Origin: Pirellulales bacterium
GTDB taxonomy: Bacteria > Planctomycetota > Planctomycetia > Pirellulales > UBA1268
Direction of reading: 5' to 3'
Assembly: GCA_044344765.1 (NCBI GenBank)
Contig: JBIJCJ010000002.1
Span: 1 to 44,478, forward strand
Length of the DNA: 44,478 bases
The position numbers and the translations under genes were made by a program. Position 1 is the stretch's first letter, and the number at the start of each line of letters is the position of its first letter. The notes below the pieces were generated by a model. It saw only the letters and a list, made by a program, of their open reading frames with translations, was not told the DNA's origin and made no database searches. Below, one piece after another: positions 6,493-22,484 of the stretch.

Positions 6493-8073
6493 ATGGCGAG
6501 GTCACAGCGCACCCTGGCGTGTGCGAGATTTCCATCGAGAAGCCGAAAGCGGTCCGGTCGTCTGCCGAGCCGAATCCTCGCCGCGGTCCTGGTGGTCGCG
6601 ACGATGATGGCGCCGATCGCGGCCGCCGCCCCCGCGGCGGGCCCGGTGGTGCGGATCGGCTCCAAGCCGTTCACGGAAGGGATCGTGCTCGGCGAGCTGC
6701 TCGCGGGCGTCGCCCGGCAGGCGGGGGGCGCCGCCGAGCACCGGGCGGCGCTCGGTGGCACGCAGATCGTGTTCGCGGCCCTCGAACGCGGGGAGATCGA
6801 CTGCTACGTCGAGTACAGCGGCACCTTGGAGCGGGAGATCCTCCGCGCCGAAAGCGTCCGGAGCCCCGCGGACGTGGCGGCTGCGCTTGCCCGCCGGGGT
6901 CTTGCCCGGACCGGGCCGCTGGGCTTCGACAACACCTACGCCCTGGGCATGAAGGAGACGGTGGCGGCGCGGGCCGGCATCGAGACGATCTCCGATCTCG
7001 CGGGCCGCGACCTCGCCATCGCGCTCAGCGACGAGTTCGTGCGGCGGGCCGACGGCTGGCCGGCGGTTCGCGATGCCTACGAACTGCGGCAGACCCCGCG
7101 GGTGCTCGATCACGCGCTGGCTTATCGCGGCCTGGAAAGCGGCCACGTCGCGGTCACCGACCTCTACGCCACCGATCCCGAGGTGCGGGCCCACGAGCTG
7201 CGGATCCTGCGGGACGACCGGGGCGTGTTTCGCGAATACAAGGCGTTCGTGCTGTATCGCGCCGACCTCGCGGAGCGGGCGCCGGCATTCCTGGCGGCGC
7301 TCGGGCAGCTCGAGGGGACGATCGATCCGGCGGCGATGCGCGAGATGAACGCCCGGGTGCTGCTCGACGGCGAGCCGGAGCGGACCGTGGCGGCCCGCTT
7401 CCTCCGGGATCGGTTCGGCTGGGAAGTGGCCGACGACACGACGCCCGCCTGGCTGATCGTGGCCCGCGACGTGGGGCGGGCCACGCTCCAGCACCTGGCG
7501 CTCGTGGCCGCGGCATTGATTGCGGCGGTGGCCGTCGCCGTGCCGCTGGGGATATACGCCCATCGCCGGCCGCGGCTGGCCGCCGGCATCCTCGGCGTGG
7601 TCGGCATCCTGCAGACGATTCCGTCGATGGCCGTGCTCGTGTTCATGGTGCCGCTGGTGGGCCTGGGCTGGAAGCCGGCCGTGGTGGCGCTCTTTCTCTA
7701 CGGCCTCCTGCCGATCGTCCGCGGCACGTTCAACGGGCTGGCCGGAATCCCGCAGCAGCTCCGCGAGTCGGCCGAGGTGCTCGGCCTCGACGGGCGTTCC
7801 CGCTTGCGGCTCGTGGAGCTGCCGCTGGCCTCGCGATCGATTCTCGCGGGCATCAAGACGGCGGCCGTGATCGCCGTGGGCACGGCCACGATCGGCGGGC
7901 TGATCGGCGCGGGCGGCTACGGCGAGGCGATCCTGGCCGGAATCCGCCGGGCCGACGTGGGACTGCTCATGCAAGGCGCGGTGCCCGCGGCGGTGCTCGC
8001 CCTGCTGATTCAGGCGGCCTGCGATGGTCTGGAGCGGCTTGTGGTTCCCGCAGGGCTGCGGGCCGGTGGGTAG
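6493..8073 (+). CDS. fused ABC transporter: OpuAC-type substrate-binding domain plus permease (glycine betaine/choline family)
   Basis: The N-terminal half, ...[16 protein letters not shown]...[12 protein letters not shown]..., resembles quaternary-amine binding proteins. The C-terminal half is a 5-6 TM permease with an EAA-like loop ([20 protein letters not shown]). I chose the ATG at 6493 because the upstream part of the ORF is the family-B repeat. Confidence 0.8.
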
Positions 8074-8123
8074 AATCCTCCGCGTCGGGGAAGTCTCAAC
8101 GTGGCGAGAAGTGGTGGCCGGAC

Positions 8124-10637
8124 ATGATCGAGTTTTGTGCGTTTGCGATCGTCGTGCTCGGTGTGCTCGTGGTCCGCATGACCGGCGTGCTGCGCGAAAT
8201 CCAGGAGGCGCAGCGCACCCTGCTCGAGCGGCAGCGGCAGATGGACGCCCTGCTGACGGCGAGTTTCACGGGTCGGGATCAGGCCACGTCTTCCGAGCCG
8301 GCGGTCGTGATCGTGCCCCCGTTCGCCGGGTCCGCCACCCCTGCGCCGATGCCGTCGCCAGTGCCGGCCGCAGAGCCGCCTCCGCTGCCGGCTGTTACGG
8401 CCGCCGCTCCGCAGGCCAAACCGTTCGCCGGTGGGTTCACGGACCTCACGTCCGCCGATCTCGACGTTGCCATTTCCGCACGCGAGGTGGTGCCGGCCGC
8501 GGCCCGCGTCGTCTCGCCGCCACGGCAGCCCTTGCCCCGCGCGGTTCCGAGCCGCTTCGAGACGGCCGCCCGCGACACGCTCGGCAGGATCTGGAACTGG
8601 ATCATCGTCGGTGAGGATCACATCCCGGAGGGGGTTTCCACGGAGTACGCGGTCGCGAGCCAGTGGCTGCTGCGGCTCGGGATCATCGTCCTCGTCGCCG
8701 GCATCGGCTTCTTTCTCAAGTGGTCGATCGACCGCGGCCTGCTCGGGCCCCAGGCCCGCGTGGCCCTCTCCACCGCGGCCGGGCTCGGAATGCTGATCCT
8801 CGGCGCGCGGCTGCTCGGCGGCCGCTACGGAGTGCTGGGCCAAGGCTTCCTCGGCGGCGGCCTGGCCACTCTGTACTTCAGCGTCTTCGCGGCCCACCGG
8901 CTGTTCGGCCTCGTCGACGTCGTCACCGCCTTCGCGCTCATGGCCGCCGTCACCATGCTGGCGGGCGGGATCGCGGTGCGTTTCAACTCGATGCTCGTGG
9001 CCGTGCTCGGGATCATCGGCGGCTACGGCACGCCGCTGATGTTCACGACGGCGGACCCCAACCTGCCGGTCCTGTTCGGCTACCTGCTCGTGCTCGGCTG
9101 CGGCGTGCTGGCGATCTGCTTCTGGCGGAACTGGCCGCTGGTCAACCTGCTGGCGTTCGTGGCGACCTGGTGCCTGGTGCCGCCGGCGCTGGTGCAGTAC
9201 GAGACGAGCCAGTTTCGCGAGGTCTATCCATTCATCGTCGGCTTCTTCGTGCTCTTCTCGACGATGACCTTCCTTTACAAGGTGGTCCGCGGCACGCCCG
9301 CGACGGTCCTCGACCTGTTCGCCCTGTTCGCCAACGCGGCCGTGTTCTTCGGGATCTCCTTCTGGATGGTGGACGACGCCTTCGGCCGGCGGCAGGTGGC
9401 GCTCGTGACGCTCGGCCTGGCCGCCTTCTACACCCTCCACGTGCTCTTCTTCCTCCGGCGCGGGGGCGTGGACCGCGGCCTGCTCGTCTCCTTTCTCGGC
9501 CTCGCCGCCACGTTCGTGGCCGTGACGATGCCGCTGGTGCTCTCGCGGCAGTGGGTCACGGCCAGCTGGGCGATCCAGGCGGTCGTGCTCCTGTGGATGG
9601 CCGAGCGGCTCGAGAGCGGCATCGTGAGACGCATGGGGCTCGCGCTCCTCGGCATCGTGTTCGTGCGGTTCTGCGGCCTTGATCTGGGCCGTACGTTCCT
9701 GCCCGGCGGCAGCGTCGCGGCGGCCGCGGCCGAACTGCCCGTGGGCGGCTACCTGCGGCTCCTCGCCGAGCGGGCGATAGCCTTCGGTATTCCCATCGCG
9801 GCCTTCGGCGTGGCGGCTCGGCTCGTCGGCCGCACGCCGCGGCCCGCCGACCCTGCCAAGTCCGACCGCGGGCACGTCGGTCTCGCCTCATTCCTCTGGC
9901 TCGCCGGGATCGCGGCCCTGCTGTTCTATGTGCACCTTGAAGTCGATCGCACGGCGGAGTTCTTCTTCCCCGCGGCGCGGCTACCGCTGCTGTCGATCGT
10001 CTGGGTCGCCATCGGGGCGATCTTTCTCCGGGAATACGCGGTCGGCGGCAGCTCGTTCGCGTTGGGGCTCGTCGGCTGCGTGGTGATGGCGGTGCTCTTG
10101 AAACTCGTCGCCTGGGACCTGCCGGCCTGGGGCGTGGACGAACGGTTCGTGGCAGGCCCGGGGTACTCGCTGCTCGATGCCGGGCTGCGGGCCCTGGACT
10201 TCGGGGCAGTGATCGCCTTCATGGTGTCGGCCTACGCCGTCACCGGCAGAGCCCGGGCCCGCACGGATGCCCGGCCGCTGCTGGCCGTCGCCTGCCTGGG
10301 CACGCTGTTCGCCTACCTGACCCTGGAGACGAACTCGTTCCTGGCCGCGTATTATCCGGGGTTCCGCGCCGGCGGCGTGTCGATCGTGTGGGCGGTCTTC
10401 GCGCTCGCGCTCGTGCTGGCGGGCATCGCCCGCAACGTCGGGCCGCTCCGGTTGGTCGGGCTCGGGCTGTTCGCGATCGTCTCGGGCAAGGTGTTCCTCC
10501 ACGATCTGGCGAGTCTCGACACGTTCTGGCGGATCGTGGCGTTCATCATCCTCGGCCTGCTGCTGATCGCCGGTTCGTTCGCGTACCTGAAGTATCGCGA
10601 GAAGTTCATGGTCAGGGCCGGGGAGGGGAGGTCATGA
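8124..10637 (+). CDS. large polytopic membrane protein, DUF2339-like
   Basis: N-terminal TM helix, then a coiled segment, a Pro/Ala-rich linker, and about 20 TM helices. This matches the DUF2339 architecture. The ATG at 8124 lies inside the read-through ORF 6348-10637. Confidence 0.7.
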
Positions 10638-11536
10638 GCCGCCCGCATGCGATCCTGATCACCGCGGCGGTTCTTGTCGCCGCGGCCGCGGAGGCCGCCG
10701 CCGGCGGGCGGCGTGGGAAGCCGCTCGTGCTGCCGCCGCTCGAGGCGACGGGCCTCGTCGCGGTGCGGCTCGATGCCGACGTCCATGCCGCCGCCGCCGA
10801 CGGCTACGGCGACCTGCGGATCCTGGATGCTCAGGCCGCCGAGGTTCCCTACATCGTGCGGGACGTGATCACGACGGACCTCTTGATCGGCGGCTTTCGC
10901 GTCGTTCGCGAGCCCGATGAGCGGGCGACGCGGATCACGGTCGATGCCCGCCGGCAGCCCGTCACCGAGTTCACGATCGCCACCGATTCCCGGAACTTCA
11001 GCCGGTCGCTGACGGTGACGCGGCCGGCCGAGCCCGATGGCGACGGGCCACGCCGCCCGCGCAGGCCGATCGCCACGGCCACGATTACACGGATCGACGT
11101 CGCGGGCCTGCGCCGCGAGCAGCTGGCGATCGGGCTGCCCGAGAGCCGCCTGGAGACGTACGAGCTCGTGATCGACGACGGCGACAGCCCGCCACTCGCC
11201 GTGACCGGCGTCACGGCCCGCGGCCCGGCCCGCGAGGTCGTGTTCCTGGCCGAACCGGGCGCGGCCTACCGGCTGGCCTACGGCGGTGAGCTCGCTCCGC
11301 CGCGGTACGACACGGCCGCCATCCGCACGGCGGTTGCCGCCCGGGTGGTCGCGACGCCCGCGACGCTCGGAGCGGAGTCGGTCGTCGCGACGCCACAGCC
11401 CGCGGCCGATCCGCTGTGGCTGCTCGGCGACGGCCGCTTCCAGATCGCCGTGATCGCGACGCTGGCGATCATCCTCGCCGCCGCGCTGTTCCGAGCCGCG
11501 CAGCGGATCGACGCGGCCCCACCATCACCGGAGTGA
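10634..11536 (+). CDS. DUF3999-like secreted/anchored protein
   Basis: Signal peptide, ...[16 protein letters not shown]..., ...[17 protein letters not shown]...[17 protein letters not shown]..., and a C-terminal TM anchor. The ATG overlaps the DUF2339 stop (ATGA). DUF2339/DUF3999 pairing is a common synteny. Confidence 0.55.
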
Positions 11537-11538
11537 CC

Positions 11539-12951
11539 ATGACCGCGACCGCACGGAGGCAGGCGCCGTACGTTTTCTTCGGCCAGACGACGTCGCTGTG
11601 CGGCGAGTGCCTGGCGCTCGTGCCGGCCAAGATCGTGATCGAGGAGGGCCGGGTCTACTACCACAAGCGATGCCGCACCCACGGGCCGCAGAAGGTGCTC
11701 GTGTCCACCGACGCCGCCTACTGGCGGCTGTGCCACGACTACCTCAAGCCGGGCGACCGGCCGCTGGCCTTGCAGACGCACACCGAACGGGGCTGCCCCT
11801 ACGACTGCGGACTCTGCCCTGACCACGAGCAGCACTCGTGCCTGGCACTCATCGACGTCAACGAGGCCTGCAACCTCACCTGCCCGGTCTGCTTCTCCGA
11901 CTCCTCGCCGCAGCGGTCGCTCCACCGGCCGCTGGCCGAGATCGAGCGGATGATGGACGCGCTGGTGCGGAGCGAGGGGGAGCCCGACCTGCTGCAGCTT
12001 TCCGGGGGCGAGCCGACGATCCACCCCGAGATCCTGGAAATCCTCGCGGCGGCCAAGCGGCGGCCGATCCGCCACGTGATGCTCAACACCAACGGCATCC
12101 GCATCGCCGAGGATCCCGAGTTCGTGAAGCGGCTCGCCGATCTGCGGCCGGGGTTCGAGGTCTATTTGCAGTTCGACTCGCTGCGGCCGGAGGCTCACCT
12201 CAATCTCCGCGGCGCGGACCTGACGCGGATCCGCCGCCAGGCCATGGAGAACCTGGAGCGGGCCGGCATCTCCACGACGCTCGTCGTGGTGGTGAAACAG
12301 GGGGTCAACGACGCCGAGATCCCGGCGATCATCGACCACGCCCTCCAGTGGCGGTGCGTCCGCGGCGTCGTCCTCCAGCCGATCCAGGACGCCGGCCGCA
12401 ACGAGGGCTTTGATGCGTCAAAGGATCGTTTTCCCCTCTCCGCCATCCGGCGGCGGATCGTCGATTCCGGCGGCTCGTTCGGGGAAGGCGACATCATCCC
12501 GCTCCCCTGCAATCCGGAGAGCATCGCCATCGGCTACGCCCTGCGGAAGGGAACGCAGATCGCCCCGGTGACCTCGTTCTTTCCCCGGGAGCTGCTCGTC
12601 GAGGCCCTGCCGAATGCGATCACGTTCGAGAAATACCCCGATCTGCACAAGCAGGTGCTCGAGTTCTTCTCGCTCGCGACCGCCGAGTGCAACAACGAGA
12701 AGAAGCTCGCCGAGCTGCTCTGCTGCCTGCCCGAGGTGCCCCTGCCGGCGGGGCTGGGGTATGAAGACACCTTCCGGGTGGTGATCGTGGAGTTCATGGA
12801 CGCCCACAATTTCTGCCTCGGCCGCGTGAAGCGGTCGTGCATCCACTTCGTCACGCCGGAAGAGAAGATCATCCCGTTCGAGACCTACAACCTGTTCTAC
12901 CGCGACGCGGCCGCGCAGGCCCGGATGCGGCGGTCGCTGGAGGGGCGATGA
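11539..12951 (+). CDS. radical SAM enzyme with an N-terminal Cys-rich ribbon and an auxiliary-cluster motif
   Basis: CX3CX2C core CNLTCPVC followed by SGGEPT. N-terminal CGEC...HKRCRTHG. Extra motif GCPYDCGLCPDHEQHSC. Conserved tail ...EFMDAHNFCLGRVKRSCIHF...IPFETYN. The start lies 2 nt after the previous stop. Confidence 0.85.
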   Translation: MTATARRQAPYVFFGQTTSLCGECLALVPAKIVIEEGRVYYHKRCRTHGPQKVLVSTDAAYWRLCHDYLKPGDRPLALQTHTERGCPYDCGLCPDHEQHSCLALIDVNEACNLTCPVCFSDSSPQRSLHRPLAEIERMMDALVRSEGEPDLLQLSGGEPTIHPEILEILAAAKRRPIRHVMLNTNGIRIAEDPEFVKRLADLRPGFEVYLQFDSLRPEAHLNLRGADLTRIRRQAMENLERAGISTTLVVVVKQGVNDAEIPAIIDHALQWRCVRGVVLQPIQDAGRNEGFDASKDRFPLSAIRRRIVDSGGSFGEGDIIPLPCNPESIAIGYALRKGTQIAPVTSFFPRELLVEALPNAITFEKYPDLHKQVLEFFSLATAECNNEKKLAELLCCLPEVPLPAGLGYEDTFRVVIVEFMDAHNFCLGRVKRSCIHFVTPEEKIIPFETYNLFYRDAAAQARMRRSLEGR

Positions 12952-13391
12952 GGGGATTGCTGATCGTGCTCTGTACGTTGGGAACGGTCGCTGCAACGCT
13001 GGCGGGCGGCTGCGGCTTGCTGTTCAGTTTCGCGATGGCGGTGGCGGACCAGAACCGGGGCGAGGCCGCCGGGGGCGCCCTGATGATCGCCCTACCGGTA
13101 CTTGCCGTTACCGGCGCGCTAGCGCTGGCAAACATCGCGCTGATCGCCGCGATCGCCAATGGCCGGGCGCCGCGCCGCAATGTCTGGTTCCTGCTCCTCG
13201 CGATCGTGGACCTCGCCATCGCGAGCGTCCTTGCGGCGGCGGGATTCGCCGGGCAGGGGCCGGTGAACCCGGGCGATGCCTTAACCCTTTTCCTGCCGGT
13301 CATGCTGGCGGTCAAGGGCGGGCTCACGCTCCTGCTTCCCGCGCAGCCGCGCCAGCTGCCACCGGGTGAGAACCCGGAGGAGGCTGCATGA
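12948..13391 (+). CDS. small 4-TM membrane protein, paralog 1
   Basis: MRGLLIVLCTLGTVAATLAGGCGLL.... ATGA overlap with the radical SAM stop. It shares its N-terminus and the ...LAN(I)..., ...RR..., ...D.A.A..., ..VKG.L.. landmarks with the next ORF. Confidence 0.6.
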   Translation: MRGLLIVLCTLGTVAATLAGGCGLLFSFAMAVADQNRGEAAGGALMIALPVLAVTGALALANIALIAAIANGRAPRRNVWFLLLAIVDLAIASVLAAAGFAGQGPVNPGDALTLFLPVMLAVKGGLTLLLPAQPRQLPPGENPEEAA

Positions 13392-13840
13392 GGTGGCTCC
13401 TCGTCGTGCTGACGATGATCGTGGCCCTCGGGGCACTGTTTTCCGGAGGGTGCGCCGTGCTGTCGGTCGGCCAGTACCTTTGGCACGGGCCGCGCGGCGA
13501 GCTTCCGGGCGTGCAGCGGGCCATCGCCTGGATTTCCGCCGGCGTGGGACTCGCGGCCGCCGCGGTGCTGGCCGCCAACATCTGGGTCTTGCTGGCGGCC
13601 TTCGGGCCGCCGTCGCCCCGACGCCGCCTGATCGCGTACGTGCTGGCCTGCATGGACGTCGCCACGGCCGCTGCGGCGCTGGCATGGATCGTGTGGGCCG
13701 ACGGCTGGCACTGGGCTGACTGGCAGTGGTCCTTGCTGGCCAAGGCGGGAGCCGTGGCGCTCGGCGTGAAGGGTGTTCTCATCGGCGCGGTCGTCGGCCG
13801 ATGGTGGGCTTCCGGCACCAGTCGCGTGGGCGATCCGTGA
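13388..13840 (+). CDS. small 4-TM membrane protein, paralog 2
   Basis: MRWLLVVLTMIVALGALFSGGCAVL.... ATGA overlap upstream and GTGA overlap downstream. Confidence 0.6.
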   Translation: MRWLLVVLTMIVALGALFSGGCAVLSVGQYLWHGPRGELPGVQRAIAWISAGVGLAAAAVLAANIWVLLAAFGPPSPRRRLIAYVLACMDVATAAAALAWIVWADGWHWADWQWSLLAKAGAVALGVKGVLIGAVVGRWWASGTSRVGDP

Positions 13841-14550
13841 ACGTCCACACGCAATTCGACATCGCCGCGGCCACCGCCGCGGCGGCGATGACCGTCGCCT
13901 GCTTCTTCTGGCGGCTCAAGGACGCGGCGGCACGGATCGAGCACGCCGGCTTCGGCTACGCCTTCGCCCTCGTGGGCGGTGCGGCCTTGGGCGGCTACGC
14001 GGCGGGCACCGCGAACCTGTGGCTTGCGGGGGAGCCGGGGGTGGCCCGGAGCATCGTGGGGGCGCTCGCCGGGGCGATCGCGGCGATCGAACTCTTCAAG
14101 CGGGCCCGCGGGATCACCGGCTCGACCGGGCTGATCTTCGTGCCGGCCTTCGCCACGAGCGTCGCCATCGGCCGCTGGGGCTGTTTTTATTCGGGGCTCA
14201 CCGACCACACCCACGGCTGCCCCACGACGCTCTCCTGGGGCCACGACTTCGGCGACCAGATTCCCCGCCACGCGGTGCAGCTCTACGAGTCGGCCGCGAT
14301 GGCCGCGTTCCTCATCTTTGCCCTCGTGATGCTCGCCCGCCGTGAGCCGTTCTTCATGAGGAACGGCTTCTACCTGATGGTGTTCTGGTACGCGGCGCAG
14401 CGGTTCGGCTGGGAGTTTCTCAAGCCCTATGCATCGCTGCTTGGGCCGCTCAACCTTTTCCATCTCGTCTGTCTGGGGCTGATGGGGTACGCCATCTGGA
14501 TGCTGCGGCGAAGTCGGCGGTCACAGGCCGCCTTACGAGGAAGGCCGTGA
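13837..14550 (+). CDS. divergent prolipoprotein diacylglyceryl transferase (Lgt)-family membrane protein
   Basis: GRWGCFYSG in place of the canonical GRxGNFxNxE, and RHAVQLYES in place of HPxQLYE. About 7 TM helices. The GTG start at 13837 overlaps the upstream stop. Confidence 0.65.
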   Translation: MNVHTQFDIAAATAAAAMTVACFFWRLKDAAARIEHAGFGYAFALVGGAALGGYAAGTANLWLAGEPGVARSIVGALAGAIAAIELFKRARGITGSTGLIFVPAFATSVAIGRWGCFYSGLTDHTHGCPTTLSWGHDFGDQIPRHAVQLYESAAMAAFLIFALVMLARREPFFMRNGFYLMVFWYAAQRFGWEFLKPYASLLGPLNLFHLVCLGLMGYAIWMLRRSRRSQAALRGRP

Positions 14551-14685
14551 GGGGTTGCCCATGCCCCGGGAGCCGGCGTAGCTGACCAGCGGAGGCAGGA
14601 TGCCGGAGCGCAGGCAGCTCCGAGAGAGCGGAGCCCAGGATGGGCGCAGCGAACGTCCGGCGATGGGGCATGGGCGACCCCGAAC
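14547..14685. repeat. family-C ~135-bp element with terminal inverted repeats (copy 1)
   Basis: ggggttgcccatgcccc (14551-14567) against ggggcatgggcgacccc (14664-14680). Its reverse complement aligns along its whole length with 28673-28809. Confidence 0.65.
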
Positions 14686-14761
14686 CCGCACCACCACGGA
14701 GCCTTTCACCGCCTGCCGCCGCGGGTAGGATGACTGCTTCGTTCTCCCTGGAGCACCCCTC

Positions 14762-15343
14762 ATGGTCCGCACCCCTTCCACGATGCTGCCGCTGGGCACC
14801 GTCGCCCCCGAGTTCGAACTCCCCAACGTCGACGGCCGAATCGTCGACTATGCCGCCGCCGCCGGCCCGCGGGGCACGGTCGTGATGTTCATCTGCAACC
14901 ACTGCCCGTTCGTGAAGCACGTGGCCGACGAACTGGCCCGGCTCGGCCACGAGTACCTGCCCCGCGGCATCGGCTTCGCCGCCATCAGCTCCAACGACGT
15001 CGCCAGCCACCCGGCCGACTCGCCCGAGCAGATGGTGCACGAGGCCGAGGAGCGGGGCTATCCGTTCCCGTATCTCTACGACGAGACGCAGGAGGTGGCG
15101 AAGGCCTATCACGCCGCCTGCACGCCCGACTTCTACCTCTTCGACGCCGACCGCAGGCTCGTGTATCGCGGCCAGCTCGACCCGAGCCGTCCGGGCGGCG
15201 ACCTCCCGGTGACGGGCCGCGACCTGCGGGCCGCGATCGACGCGCTACTCGCCGGTCAGTCGCCGGTGGCCGCGCAGATCCCGAGCCTGGGCTGCAACAT
15301 CAAGTGGAAGCCGGGCAATCACCCGGCCTACTTCAATCCGTGA
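14762..15343 (+). CDS. thioredoxin-fold protein (AhpC/TSA-like thiol-disulfide oxidoreductase)
   Basis: APEFELPNVDG..., CNHCP redox motif, ...TPDFYLFD.... Confidence 0.8.
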   Translation: MVRTPSTMLPLGTVAPEFELPNVDGRIVDYAAAAGPRGTVVMFICNHCPFVKHVADELARLGHEYLPRGIGFAAISSNDVASHPADSPEQMVHEAEERGYPFPYLYDETQEVAKAYHAACTPDFYLFDADRRLVYRGQLDPSRPGGDLPVTGRDLRAAIDALLAGQSPVAAQIPSLGCNIKWKPGNHPAYFNP

Positions 15344-15358: not shown

Positions 15359-15622
15359 TCACCGCGGACGCGGGGCGTCGCCGGGGCGGGCGGGGCCGCG
15401 GTTGGCGAACTTGCCGATGTCCTGCGTGTCGCCCGGCTCGAGCCGCGAGGCCCGCAGGTTCTCCCGCTGGATCGCCTCGTACACCTCCTGGCGGTGCACA
15501 GGAACCTCGGACGGGGCGTTGATTCCGAGCCGGACTTTGTCTCCCCGGATGTCCACGATCGTGACGACGATGTTGTCGCCGATCATGATGCTTTCGTCAC
15601 GTTGTCTGGAGAGCACGAGCAT
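15359..15622 (-). CDS. csrA: carbon storage regulator CsrA (with a ~25 aa C-terminal extension)
   Basis: MLVLSRQRDESIMIGDNIVVTIVDIRGDKVRLGINAPSEVPVHRQEVYE matches the CsrA signature. Confidence 0.9.
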   Translation of the reverse strand: MLVLSRQRDESIMIGDNIVVTIVDIRGDKVRLGINAPSEVPVHRQEVYEAIQRENLRASRLEPGDTQDIGKFANRGPARPGDAPRPR

Positions 15623-15684: not shown

Positions 15685-16125
15685 TTATGCGCTCTTCCTG
15701 AGCGGCGGACGGTCTTGATTGAGTTCGTATTGCAGAGGCAGCTCGCCGCTCGCAACGACTTGACGGCCGGTGCGGGCTTCGAGGTTGATGACGATCGGCG
15801 CTTTCAAATTGAGCGTGAGGGTTTTGCCGTTGGTGCCGACCACCAGCACGACCTGGGCCTGGCGGATGTCGGCGACGGCGAGGGGGGTGAGCTCGCTACG
15901 CGGGATCCGCACCTGGTAGTCGGGGACGAAGCGGCGCGGGCTGACCACCGCGATGGCCACGTCGCCGCGGGTCGTGCTCTGCAGCCAGCCGAGCGCGTCG
16001 TTGGTGGCGTCGGCGAGCAGGGCCCAGTCGCGGCAATCCTCGAGGCCGGGCAGTCCGCTGGCGAAGTGGATGACGTCGCCCATGTCGACGTCGATCCGTC
16101 CGAACCTGGTGGTGTTGATGCGCAT
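15685..16125 (-). CDS. fliW: flagellar assembly factor FliW (CsrA antagonist)
   Basis: ...FASGLPGLED...W..LQS....D.AIAVVSP..F.PDY.....LNLKAPIVIN... matches the FliW family. It lies directly upstream of csrA. Confidence 0.85.
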   Translation of the reverse strand: MRINTTRFGRIDVDMGDVIHFASGLPGLEDCRDWALLADATNDALGWLQSTTRGDVAIAVVSPRRFVPDYQVRIPRSELTPLAVADIRQAQVVLVVGTNGKTLTLNLKAPIVINLEARTGRQVVASGELPLQYELNQDRPPLRKSA

Positions 16126-20071: not shown

Positions 20072-20352
20072 CCCAGCCGCACGTTTTGGGGCGAACCACG
20101 GCACCTGACGGTGGTTTTATCCCGGCTGCAGGGCTTTCGATCGCGCAGCTGCCACGGCAGCGAGGCACTCCCCGCAAGTGTCCCTCCAACGGTATGGTCC
20201 ATCCACCCTGAGGACGTCCTTATGTTGTTTGTGGGAAGTTCATTCTGTAGATTTCAGCGGCATTGAGAGCTTGTCAGAAGGCTGGCCAGCGGCAAGAAGA
20301 GTGGATTCTCGTAGCGTGTGACGTCACGTCGCAGGCAGAAAGTTGAAACCAG

Positions 20353-20985
20353 ATGTCGATCAAAGTCGTCATTGCGGATGATCACGAGGTGGTGCGGCGC
20401 GGGCTGGTAAGCCTGCTGGCCGGGTCGGAGGTGAAGATCGTCGGTGAAGCCGCCAACGGTGACGAGGCGGTGAAGATGACCAAGAAACTCAAGCCCGACG
20501 TGGTTCTCCTCGACATTCGCATGCCTGGCAAGGACGGGCTGGCGGCCCTGGAAAAGATTCGTGCCGACGCCCCGGCGGTGCGGTGCGTGATGCTGTCCAC
20601 CTTCGACAATCCGACGTACGTCGCCCGGGCAGTGGCCGCCGGGGCTCATGACTACATCCTCAAGGGCAGCAGCCGCAGCGAACTGATCAATTCGATCACC
20701 GGTGCCGCGGCCGGCCAATTGCCGATGCGGGCCGGCGAACTCCGTCGCGTTGCCACCACGATGGCCAACCGTGTGGCGACGCCCGATCCCGACATCCCGC
20801 TCACTCAGCGGGAGACACAGGTGCTCCGGCACATGGCCCTGGGCCTCTCCAACAAGGAGATCGCCCAGTCGCTGACGATCAGCGTGGAGACGGTGAAGGA
20901 GCACGTGCAAAACATCCTCCGCAAGATCGCCGTCTCCGACCGCACGCAGGCGGCGGTCTGGGCCGTGCGCCGCGGCCTGGTGTGA
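20353..20985 (+). CDS. NarL/LuxR-family two-component response regulator
   Basis: REC domain (VVIADDHEVVRRGL...DVVLLDIRMPGKDG) plus a LuxR HTH (LTQRETQVLRHMALGLSNKEIAQSLTISVETVKEHV). Confidence 0.9.
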   Translation: MSIKVVIADDHEVVRRGLVSLLAGSEVKIVGEAANGDEAVKMTKKLKPDVVLLDIRMPGKDGLAALEKIRADAPAVRCVMLSTFDNPTYVARAVAAGAHDYILKGSSRSELINSITGAAAGQLPMRAGELRRVATTMANRVATPDPDIPLTQRETQVLRHMALGLSNKEIAQSLTISVETVKEHVQNILRKIAVSDRTQAAVWAVRRGLV

Positions 20986-21545: not shown

Positions 21546-22469
21546 CTACCGCGCGCGCGGGTGGGCCTTATCGAAGGCGTCGAGGAGGCGGCTGGTCGTG
21601 ACGTGGGTGTAGATCTGCGTGGTCACGAGGCTCTTGTGGCCGAGCAGTTCCTGGACGCTGCGGATGTCGGCGCCGGCGTCGAGGAGATGCGTGGCGAAGC
21701 TGTGCCGGAGCGTGTGCGGGCTGGCCCGGCCGGTGAGGCCGGCGACGGCCAGGTGCTTCTCCAGGAGCCGGGCCACGCCGCGGACGGAAAGCCGGCCGCC
21801 GAGCTTGTTGGTGAACAGCGGTCGTGAGCCGCGCGGCGCCGTGGCCGCCTGGCGGGGGCGGGCGGCGAGCCATGCCTCCAAGGCGGCGCGGGCGTGGCGG
21901 CCGACGATGCCCAGCCGCTCGCGGCGGCCCTTGCCGCGGACGCGGACGGTCGCGTTGCGCAGGTCGAGGTCGGCGTCGTCGAGTCCGACCAGTTCCCGGA
22001 CGCGGACGCCCGACGAGTACATGAGCTCGAGGATCGCCCGATCCCGCAGGCCCCCGGCCGCCTGCGGCTGCGGAGCCGCCAGGAGCCGGGCGATCTCGGC
22101 GCCGGTGAGGAACTTGGGCAGCTTCCGCGCCCGCCGCGGACCACGGAGCGGCTTCGCGGGGTTGGCCCGAACCCAGCCTTCGCGCTGGCCGAAGGCATAG
22201 AAGCTGCGCATGCTGGCCAGCTTGCGGGCGACGGTGGAGGCGGCGTAACCGGCGGCGTGCAGGCCCGATGCGAACCGCCGTAGGAGTACGGTCGATGCTT
22301 CGCCCGGGCCGCGGCAGCCGGCCGACCGCAGGAACTCCTCGAGCTGGAGGAGGTCCTCGCGGTAGCTCTTGAGCGTCAGCGGCGAGCCCCCCCGCTCCGC
22401 CGAGAGGTACGTCAGAAAGCGGCCGATCGCGGCGGCGAAGTCGGGTGTGTTCGCCGGGGAACGTGGCAT
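21546..22469 (-). CDS. xerC: tyrosine site-specific recombinase, XerC/XerD family
   Basis: N-terminal SAM-like domain (FLTYLSAERGGSPLTLKSYREDL) and catalytic ...HTLRHSFATHLLDAGADIRSVQELLGHKSLVTTQIYTHV. Confidence 0.8.
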   Translation of the reverse strand: MPRSPANTPDFAAAIGRFLTYLSAERGGSPLTLKSYREDLLQLEEFLRSAGCRGPGEASTVLLRRFASGLHAAGYAASTVARKLASMRSFYAFGQREGWVRANPAKPLRGPRRARKLPKFLTGAEIARLLAAPQPQAAGGLRDRAILELMYSSGVRVRELVGLDDADLDLRNATVRVRGKGRRERLGIVGRHARAALEAWLAARPRQAATAPRGSRPLFTNKLGGRLSVRGVARLLEKHLAVAGLTGRASPHTLRHSFATHLLDAGADIRSVQELLGHKSLVTTQIYTHVTTSRLLDAFDKAHPRAR

Positions 22470-22484
22470 CGCGGTGGGCCCGGC

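Follow-up and report, generated by a model that had tools for sequence, protein, structure and literature searches.

An Lgt-like protein, a Tes-like radical SAM enzyme and small cysteine-bearing membrane proteins in one bacterial cassette: a possible private S-lipidation system

A four-gene cassette in a Pirellulales genome

The window analysed here is a 44,478 nt stretch of DNA from a Pirellulales bacterium (contig JBIJCJ010000002.1, positions 1–44,478). Within it, at 11539–14550, lie four genes of the plus strand, each junction between them being a 4 nt start/stop overlap. They encode a radical SAM (S-adenosylmethionine) enzyme of the Tes (tetraether synthase)/GDGT-MAS clade, two small membrane proteins (sm1 and sm2) that each carry a Gly-Gly-Cys (GGC) motif, and a membrane protein of the prolipoprotein diacylglyceryl transferase (Lgt) family. 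A sequence-only reading of the locus had pointed to the two small proteins beside a non-canonical Lgt, and that observation is real, conserved and understated. The favoured interpretation, held at a probability of roughly 45 %, is that the cassette may be a private protein S-lipidation system in which a Tes-like enzyme remodels lipid tails. The genes are as follows.

11539–12951, + strand: radical SAM enzyme, 470 aa, Tes/GDGT-MAS clade (Pfam, NCBIfam and PDB 7TOL/7TOM matches)
12948–13391, + strand: sm1, 147 aa, four-helix membrane protein, MR-h(17)-G20-G21-C22 (orthologues, family alignments, AlphaFold2)
13388–13840, + strand: sm2, 150 aa, sm1 paralogue, G20-G21-C22 (profile, orthologues)
13837–14550, + strand: Lgt-like membrane protein, 237 aa, GTG start, seven predicted helices (Pfam LGT, hhalign, AlphaFold2)

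The overlaps are ATGA at 12948–12951 (radical SAM stop/sm1 start), ATGA at 13388–13391 (sm1/sm2) and GTGA at 13837–13840 (sm2/Lgt-like); the last of these bears out the claimed coupling of an Lgt-family gene to the small open reading frames (ORFs). The start of the Lgt-like gene is placed at GTG 13837 because of this overlap and because the start is common to homologues, which begin M/V-N-V-H-T there; the upstream GTG at 13726, given by the mechanical ORF, was rejected. G+C content at third codon positions (GC3) is 0.83–0.93 in the four genes. A promoter and terminator scan of 11000–15000 gave nothing informative, and the terminator-like matches fall inside genes.

The enzyme pair

The Lgt-like protein matches the Pfam LGT family (PF01790) at 60.8 bits over residues 84–235, against a cut-off of 24.9. 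Its score with the TIGR00544 equivalog is 23.1 bits for a cut-off of 118.9, and other lgt models are also far under their cut-offs. Three groups of motifs are recognizable: G112-R113-W-G-C116-F-Y-S-G (Cys codon 14182–14184), R144-H-A-V-Q-L-Y-E151 and Y185/R189/E193/K196. The altered loop with a retained QLYE, as earlier described, is thus present as GRWGCFYSG and RHAVQLYES. A profile of the Lgt-like family was aligned with hhalign to Escherichia coli Lgt (the sequence used is identical to PDB 5AZB) at 98.1 % probability and an E value of 1.3e-13, over E. coli residues 60–288, with these correspondences.

E. coli H103: window V74 (H103-G-G-L aligns to V74-G-A-L)
E. coli R143: window R113
E. coli N146: window C116
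E. coli E151–G154: gap in the window protein
E. coli Y235: window Y185
E. coli R239: window R189
E. coli E243: window E193
E. coli R246: window K196

The canonical signature loop, G142-R143-x-G-N146-F-x-N-G-E151-L-W-G154, is changed, Cys replacing N146 and a gap lying opposite E151–G154, and the H103-G-G-L motif, in which position 103 is His, Tyr or Trp, has Val. The phosphate-binding and gating set (R143, R239, Y235, E243 and R246, the last as Lys) is kept, and is invariant or nearly so across the wide Lgt-like family. The N-terminal 40 residues, covering the region of E. coli Y26, were left unaligned by hhalign; the wide family has a near-invariant His4-x-x-F-[DE] motif near its N-terminus. 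The AlphaFold2 model has seven helices at a predicted local distance difference test score (pLDDT) of 73, from a shallow input alignment (15 sequences at ≥66 % identity), such that the model may be poor. When PDB sequences were searched with a profile built on the alignment of the Lgt-like family, nothing matched at E≤1.

In comparison with E. coli Lgt (5AZB/5AZC), the window protein belongs to the same PF01790 family, is predicted to have seven helices, and retains G142-R143-x-G145, F147, RHPxQLYE, Y235, R239, E243 and R246 (as Lys). It differs in the replacement of N146 by Cys and of H103 by Val, in the absence of E151–G154, in a shortened periplasmic head and in length (237 versus 291 aa), and its gene is accompanied by a radical SAM gene and by the genes of its presumed clients. 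Essential residues of E. coli Lgt are Y26, H103, R143, N146, G154 and R239, of which R143 and R239 set the position of the phosphatidylglycerol phosphate (PMC13251419). The Lgt of Leptospira interrogans carries N146C and partially complements E. coli, while MSMEG_5408, a second Lgt homologue of Mycobacterium smegmatis whose role is not known, carries N146C together with Y26H (PMC13251419) and is a non-essential second copy (PMC13251419; bioRxiv 10.1101/2025.01.07.631728). The window protein agrees with these two in having Cys in place of Asn in the signature loop, and is likened to them by their published descriptions only; the Leptospira enzyme differs in being that organism's general Lgt. 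Since an N146C enzyme can partly complement E. coli, the altered loop, taken alone, is compatible with true Lgt activity. Judged from the alignments, the protein is a true member of the Lgt family with its donor-binding residues intact and its catalytic loop and head remodelled, and not a canonical Lgt. No second LGT-family match was found in the 44 kb window or in any fetched locus, and tblastn of the protein against plasmids gave no match.

More than 1600 homologues of the Lgt-like protein are present in a 90 %-clustered database, and the close ones all have GRWGCF. When 1.84 billion representative proteins were searched by profile, 2233 relatives were returned at E≤1e-3, of which 659 reach E≤1e-10, and members down to 27 % identity keep GRxGCF...D.T[YH]G...WG.DFGDG.PRHP.QLYE...Y..RF..EF.KP. 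A word-indexed search with a profile of distant members gave more than 7300 clusters, all annotated Lgt. By these searches the protein is placed in a distinct, large subfamily with GRxGCF as its hallmark, consistent with the earlier description of a non-canonical, specialised Lgt. Four representatives are about twice the normal length, P0185 (502 aa), P0222 (557 aa), P0269 (467 aa) and P0305 (463 aa); these may be fusions with another domain, the Lgt-like part being C-terminal in P0185 and N-terminal in P0222.

The radical SAM enzyme matches PF23545 (HMPTM-type Zn ribbon, 61 bits) and PF04055 (radical SAM core, 82 bits). A Zn-ribbon/rubredoxin-like motif stands at its N-terminus, and auxiliary-cluster cysteines accompany the CX3CX2C radical SAM cluster. 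The best NCBIfam match, over the full length, is the TrsS model NF045646 (297.5 bits, E 1e-88), under its cut-off of 490 bits; the Tes equivalog NF045702 follows at 263.7 bits, under a cut-off of 450. Unlike the TrsS radical SAM (seleno)protein, the window enzyme has no evident selenocysteine. PDB 7TOL/7TOM, the Methanocaldococcus jannaschii GDGT-MAS, is matched at E 1.9e-64, the 7TOL alignment covering residues 16–324 and 387–458 only, with 325–386 unaligned. Shared with that structure are the Zn ribbon, the auxiliary motif GCPYDCGLCP, the radical SAM motif CNLxCPxC and a C-terminal CIH...IIPF (CIH...IPF in the comparison with Tes). Among 102 aligned homologues 15 cysteines are invariant, including the sets C111/C115/C118, C21/C24/C45, C86/C90/C93/C101 and C324/C395/C396/C434. 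Apart from the Zn ribbon and radical SAM core Pfam detects nothing, neither a SPASM/twitch domain nor a peptide-recognition element, and matches to SPASM-family NCBIfam models (E 1e-7 to 1e-12) cover the radical SAM core only. In addition to the sub-cut-off score and the unaligned middle, the enzyme departs from Tes/GDGT-MAS in its hosts, which are bacteria without known archaeol lipids, and in its constant Lgt-like neighbour, a trait not described for Tes.

Tes couples the unactivated terminal carbons of lipid tails, reportedly by way of a carbon-sulfur adduct on an auxiliary cluster. Homology to this family points to lipid remodelling rather than to a thioether of the kind found in ribosomally synthesized and post-translationally modified peptides (RiPPs). 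In one Tepidisphaeraceae metagenome-assembled genome (L168, 6807–8284) the Tes-like gene is called in two parts, a 96 aa Zn ribbon and a 393 aa radical SAM part, which may reflect a frameshift, an assembly error or a pseudogene.

A scan with one genome per species yielded 80 loci. Pirellulales, further Planctomycetota, Aestuariivirga and further Hyphomicrobiales are represented, along with a few Rhodobacterales, Binatia and Gemmatimonadales, and one locus is from a cultured carrier, Aestuariivirga litoralis KCTC 52945 (L049). The Lgt-like gene and the Tes-like radical SAM gene are paired in 85/85 related loci where the contig allows, and the pairing is also seen with independent gene calls. 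Gene order in Planctomycetes is radical SAM, small genes, Lgt-like; in Alphaproteobacteria it is Lgt-like, an optional 146 aa protein, radical SAM and small genes. The optional protein (‘smA’), a separate family with four transmembrane (TM) helices, occurs between the two enzyme genes in L004 (8687–9127), L049 (~7700–8136) and ~20 other alphaproteobacterial loci; it has the conserved motifs M-x-RADFWCR and DWTADLF, no relation to the GGC proteins by profile search and no Pfam family. Identities between Planctomycetota and Alphaproteobacteria are 60–68 % for the Lgt-like protein and 71–79 % for the radical SAM enzyme, values which suggest that the cassette is a horizontally spread accessory module. 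A metagenome scan seeded with distant members added 80 loci, mostly from soil, with freshwater among the other sources. Identity to the window proteins there is 35–45 % (Lgt-like) and 47–53 % (radical SAM), and a Tes-like radical SAM gene lies just downstream of the Lgt-like gene wherever the contig allows. The sequence-only reading had the radical SAM enzyme merely upstream; its position is as described, but on homology and pairing it is rather a Tes/GDGT-MAS homologue, the obligate partner of the Lgt-like protein and integral to the system.

Small proteins and flanking genes

The two tandem ORFs of 147 and 150 aa are as first reported. sm1 begins MRGLLIVLCTLGTVAATLAGGC... and sm2 begins MRWLLVVLTMIVALGALFSGGC..., and the Cys of the GGC motif is residue 22 in both (TGC at 13011–13013 and 13451–13453, respectively). 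One profile recovers both (E 1e-29 for sm1, 3e-27 for sm2) and they have invariant residues in common. By BLASTP their paralogy is weak, with only the N-terminal 42 aa aligned (38 % identity, E 2e-4), and overall identity is 27 %. Orthologues of sm1 (46–69 % identity) occupy the same position in Pirellulales loci, and orthologues of sm2 (50–65 %) occur in L007, L010, L012–L014 and L019–L021. By these comparisons the two are old paralogues, representing two orthologous groups drawn from a repertoire that varies between 0 and 5 copies, and not a recent tandem duplication. Neither protein matches a Pfam or NCBIfam family. The AlphaFold2 model of sm1 has four helices (pLDDT 74). Across sm1, sm2 and 45 homologues G20, G21, C22 and D88 are invariant and N62 and K123 nearly so; N62, D88 and K123, common to the 4-TM forms, fall in helices 2–4.

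An iterated profile search seeded with sm1 or sm2 was run over stop-to-stop segments of at least 60 aa on both strands of all loci (8402 segments). Approximately 130 matches were found, all on the coding strand and immediately beside the Lgt-like and radical SAM genes. GGC is present in all but one, the exception being GSC in L050, and such retention of the motif is far beyond chance. Conservation of the Cys among homologues, the check put forward with the original proposal, is therefore borne out. The N-terminal consensus is M-[KRH]-h(15-18)-G-G-C and, after start-codon assignment, most sequences have the Cys at residue 19 (for the greater part Alphaproteobacteria) or at residue 22 (Planctomycetes). 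Forms with four TM helices are 110–150 aa long and 2-TM forms 60–90 aa. A profile search of a 5.8-billion-protein database found 59 relatives, all hypothetical proteins without a Pfam domain.

Copy number is variable. At least one GGC gene is present in 74 loci (one in 36, two in 28, three in 9 and five in 1), multiple copies standing in tandem; of the 12 loci without a copy, 9 are cut before the expected region, L077 extends over that region and has none, L084 is a partial cassette and L057 may be a further genuine absence. Differences are also apparent between close relatives. L006 (652–1930) encodes three GGC proteins of 175, 121 and 78 aa beside enzymes within 90–98 % identity to those of the window, and L008 (4013–4709) encodes two different GGC proteins of 124 and 78 aa beside enzymes 93–98 % identical. 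Going by these loci, turnover of the GGC repertoire is unusually fast for an operon-internal gene.

The N-terminus resembles a lipoprotein signal peptide (PS51257) in having an N-terminal K/R, a hydrophobic stretch of 15–18 residues, small residues at −1 and −2 and a Cys at 19–22. A PROSITE-style lipoprotein pattern, as coded in this analysis (K/R in the first 7 residues, an uncharged h-region, [AGS]-C, and Cys at 15–35), fits 84 of 124 GGC sequences; sm1 is among the fits, and sm2 fits by eye, the script having assigned it no start. The GGC family differs from such signal peptides in having Gly at −2, a residue other than Leu at −3 and a hydrophobic run that continues past the Cys. The small proteins of the cassettes are also polytopic, and the helix with the Cys can come last in the distant ones. 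The arrangement was earlier called lipobox-like but off the strict consensus, which is correct for sm1 and sm2: position −1 fits, and −2 (Gly) and −3 (not Leu) do not. The positive-inside rule places the Cys in the outer half of the membrane.

The GGC profile found no match in the distant metagenome loci, where other small membrane ORFs fill the same positions. Between the two enzyme genes are 2-TM proteins, often in 2–3 copies, whose first helix ends ...LLAGGSCFGF... or ...LAISCCGGG..., and after the radical SAM gene are 3-TM proteins whose last helix contains ...A[AG]CFG... about 8–10 residues from the C-terminus. The stop codon of the Lgt-like gene overlaps the start of a textbook lipoprotein (MKR..LSLLIGC|FY.PTF) in L166, L087 and L153. 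A Cys in a hydrophobic stretch after small residues, a loose motif, is found in 39/69 adjacent small membrane ORFs compared with 16/123 of those situated elsewhere in these loci (odds ratio 8.7, Fisher p 4e-10), and 27/40 evaluable loci are positive. Single-linkage clustering merged all of the distant small ORFs into one uninformative alignment, which was used only for reading individual sequences. In the families read residue by residue, which are the GGC family, the 2-TM gap proteins and the 3-TM type, a distance of ~18–20 residues separates the Cys and the cytoplasmic K/R. The constant set, as far as can be read from the loci, is two enzymes and at least one small membrane protein with a small-residue-flanked Cys in an inside-to-outside helix.

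Several flanking genes were considered. Directly upstream of the cassette, on the plus strand, are a DUF2339 membrane protein (~8000–10637) and a DUF3999 protein (10631–11536). This pair is also upstream in L002 but is absent from L001 and L003, in which NADH-antiporter-like and TatD genes precede the cassette, and it was rejected as part of it. Downstream of the Lgt-like gene is an AhpC/TSA-redoxin gene of 193 aa (14762–15343, plus strand), followed immediately on the opposite strand by csrA (15359–15622) and fliW (15685–16125), both identified by ORF translations and Pfam-annotated syntenic genes in L001 and L002. The redoxin is present in most Planctomycete loci that extend past the Lgt-like gene (81–96 % identity). 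As a core part it was rejected, being found in Planctomycete loci only, where csrA and fliW are syntenic, and missing from the cassettes of Alphaproteobacteria and from the distant ones. Its presence probably reflects synteny within the lineage, although it may be a thiol-redox partner of a Cys-based system. Farther away, a tyrosine recombinase (Phage_integrase with SAM-like N domain; 21546–22484, minus strand) lies beside a LuxR-type response regulator (20347–20985); given the same arrangement in L001, it looks like conserved chromosomal XerC/D-like synteny and not the edge of a mobile element.

Weighing a private lipidation pathway

Several features are directly observed: the homology of both enzymes, their obligate pairing, the overlapping genes, the invariance of the Cys, and small proteins that vary in both copy number and architecture. 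On the favoured reading the small proteins would insert with their N-terminus in the cytoplasm, bringing the invariant Cys, preceded by two small residues, to the outer-leaflet part of an inside-to-outside helix. This depth and the preceding small residues reproduce the geometry of a lipoprotein signal peptide and its lipobox. The active site of Lgt faces the outer leaflet, and the lipoprotein signal peptide is the substrate of Lgt-type enzymes (PMC13251419). The Lgt-like enzyme would then attach a glycerolipid moiety to the Cys as a thioether, the small proteins being its presumed substrates and the identity of the lipid being proposed by analogy. Subsequently, if this order of steps holds, the cytoplasmic Tes-like enzyme would work on acyl tails, either those of the donor lipid or those carried by the lipidated protein, with C-C coupling of unactivated tail carbons producing a macrocyclic or membrane-spanning anchor. 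For this last enzyme and its product the family analogy is the sole guide, and tail remodelling of the donor lipid or the protein-bound anchor is the most economical guess. Architectures with 2, 3 or 4 TM helices, a Cys helix that is first or last, 0–5 copies and fast turnover fit clients better than fixed subunits. The private lipidation or thioether-type pathway of the sequence-only reading is partly supported, with the pairing, the conserved Cys and the lipobox-like Cys in unrelated small proteins all in agreement; the Tes homology of the radical SAM enzyme makes a RiPP-like peptide thioether the less likely part.

A number of points weigh against this reading. H103, N146 and G154, essential in E. 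coli Lgt, are absent from the Lgt-like protein, and Foldseek of its AlphaFold2 model, built on the shallow alignment, gave no match in the PDB (best E 2), leaving the active-site geometry without structural corroboration. The strict lipobox, [LVI]-[ASTVI]-[GAS]-C, is absent, sm1 having A-G-G-C and sm2 S-G-G-C, and the 6–10 hydrophobic residues that follow the GGC Cys place it further into the membrane than the Cys of a classical lipobox. The intramembrane N62, D88 and K123 suggest that the 4-TM GGC proteins do more than serve as substrates and themselves have a function. L077 has the enzyme pair, with sequence present, and no GGC gene nearby, and 13/40 distant loci have no ORF matching the automated motif, several of which show looser versions by eye. 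Lastly, the radical SAM enzyme is cytoplasmic and the Cys is in the outer leaflet; a link between the two must run through the lipid tails, which is pure inference.

Much of this would be accommodated if the two enzymes formed a membrane complex that remodels free phospholipid, for instance by coupling phosphatidylglycerol tails into a macrocyclic or membrane-spanning lipid, and the small proteins were accessory subunits, scaffolds, regulators or transient covalent carriers instead of end products. The enzyme pair would be the universal core and the small proteins variable and at times missing nearby, as they are in L077 and, by the motif count, in the 13 distant loci; the conserved intramembrane N, D and K would belong to a functional site; and the deeper Cys of the GGC family would fit as well. 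Tes-family enzymes do act on free membrane lipids (PMC8941075), and bacterial Tes homologues have been proposed, without proof, to make membrane-spanning lipids (PMC8941075; PMC13159169). However, those homologues do not track the known producers of such lipids, being present in only 3/14 iso-diabolic-acid-producing Acidobacteria (PMC13159169). Additionally, it would be unexpected for fixed subunits of well-conserved enzymes to change between 2, 3 and 4 TM helices, to shift the Cys helix from first to last place, to vary from 0 to 5 copies or to be replaced by an ordinary lipoprotein, while the sole feature kept throughout is what an Lgt-type enzyme recognises. Remodelling of free lipid, the main rival, is considered somewhat unlikely, and more doubtful still is that the radical SAM enzyme itself bonds the Cys, its sulfur catching a lipid or peptide carbon radical in the manner of sactipeptide and ranthipeptide synthases or of the C-S intermediate of Tes, with the Lgt-like protein only binding and presenting phospholipid. 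Tandem small Cys proteins with a radical SAM enzyme do resemble radical SAM maturase systems, and the GGC Cys lies buried, with hydrophobic residues around it, fairly near the mid-plane of the bilayer. Yet Pfam finds no SPASM/twitch or peptide-recognition element, the positive-inside rule sets the Cys in the membrane's outer half, apart from the cytoplasmic Fe-S enzyme, and an Lgt-like protein that keeps catalytic-type residues and gains an invariant Cys is suggestive of an enzyme rather than a passive binder. A RiPP-like peptide thioether was ranked low for similar reasons: precursors matured by SPASM enzymes are short, soluble leader-core peptides, whereas here no SPASM/twitch domain was detected in the enzyme and the small proteins cross the membrane several times.

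Ordinary lipoprotein biogenesis, with a housekeeping lgt beside small ORFs that are unrelated or not genes at all, is highly improbable as judged from the window and the fetched loci. Databases do annotate the family as prolipoprotein diacylglyceryl transferase, and the Pfam LGT domain is significant, but 23 bits against an equivalog cut-off of 118.9, the loss of H103, N146 and G154, and a short protein with a reduced head domain are difficult to reconcile with a housekeeping role. The constant pairing with a Tes-like enzyme and the sharing of the genes across phyla, which suggests a horizontally transferred accessory module, argue the same way, and the small ORFs are conserved, translationally coupled and high in GC3.

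The private S-lipidation reading also has a more specific and less likely form, in which the product would be an undescribed kind of lipoprotein: a transmembrane-helix Cys S-linked to a glycerolipid, the acyl tails of which are then C-C coupled by the Tes-like enzyme to give a protein-bound macrocyclic or membrane-spanning lipid. Coupling partners could lie within the anchor, in a lipid of the opposite leaflet or in the anchor of a paralogous partner.

The brGDGTs (branched glycerol dialkyl glycerol tetraethers) and other membrane-spanning lipids serve as palaeoclimate proxies. Bacterial Tes homologues, 456 of them in one survey, have been discussed only as candidate synthases of brGDGTs or membrane-spanning lipids (PMC8941075). 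Full-text searches found no literature linking a diacylglyceryl transferase homologue with Tes or tetraether synthesis in bacteria, and no description of the cassette was found in the searchable literature.

Two open questions, the role of the hundreds to thousands of bacterial Tes homologues and that of the N146C Lgt paralogues, thus meet in one cassette. The obligate pair, usually with Cys-bearing membrane proteins, provides a concrete, testable hypothesis for both families, and Aestuariivirga litoralis KCTC 52945, as a cultured carrier, is a tractable entry point. If the lipidation reading is true, bacterial lipoprotein biogenesis has a private, client-specific branch with radical chemistry on the anchor. 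Should the more specific form with a coupled, protein-bound lipid be true, it would be the first concrete function for bacterial Tes homologues and for the ‘second Lgt’ N146C paralogues.

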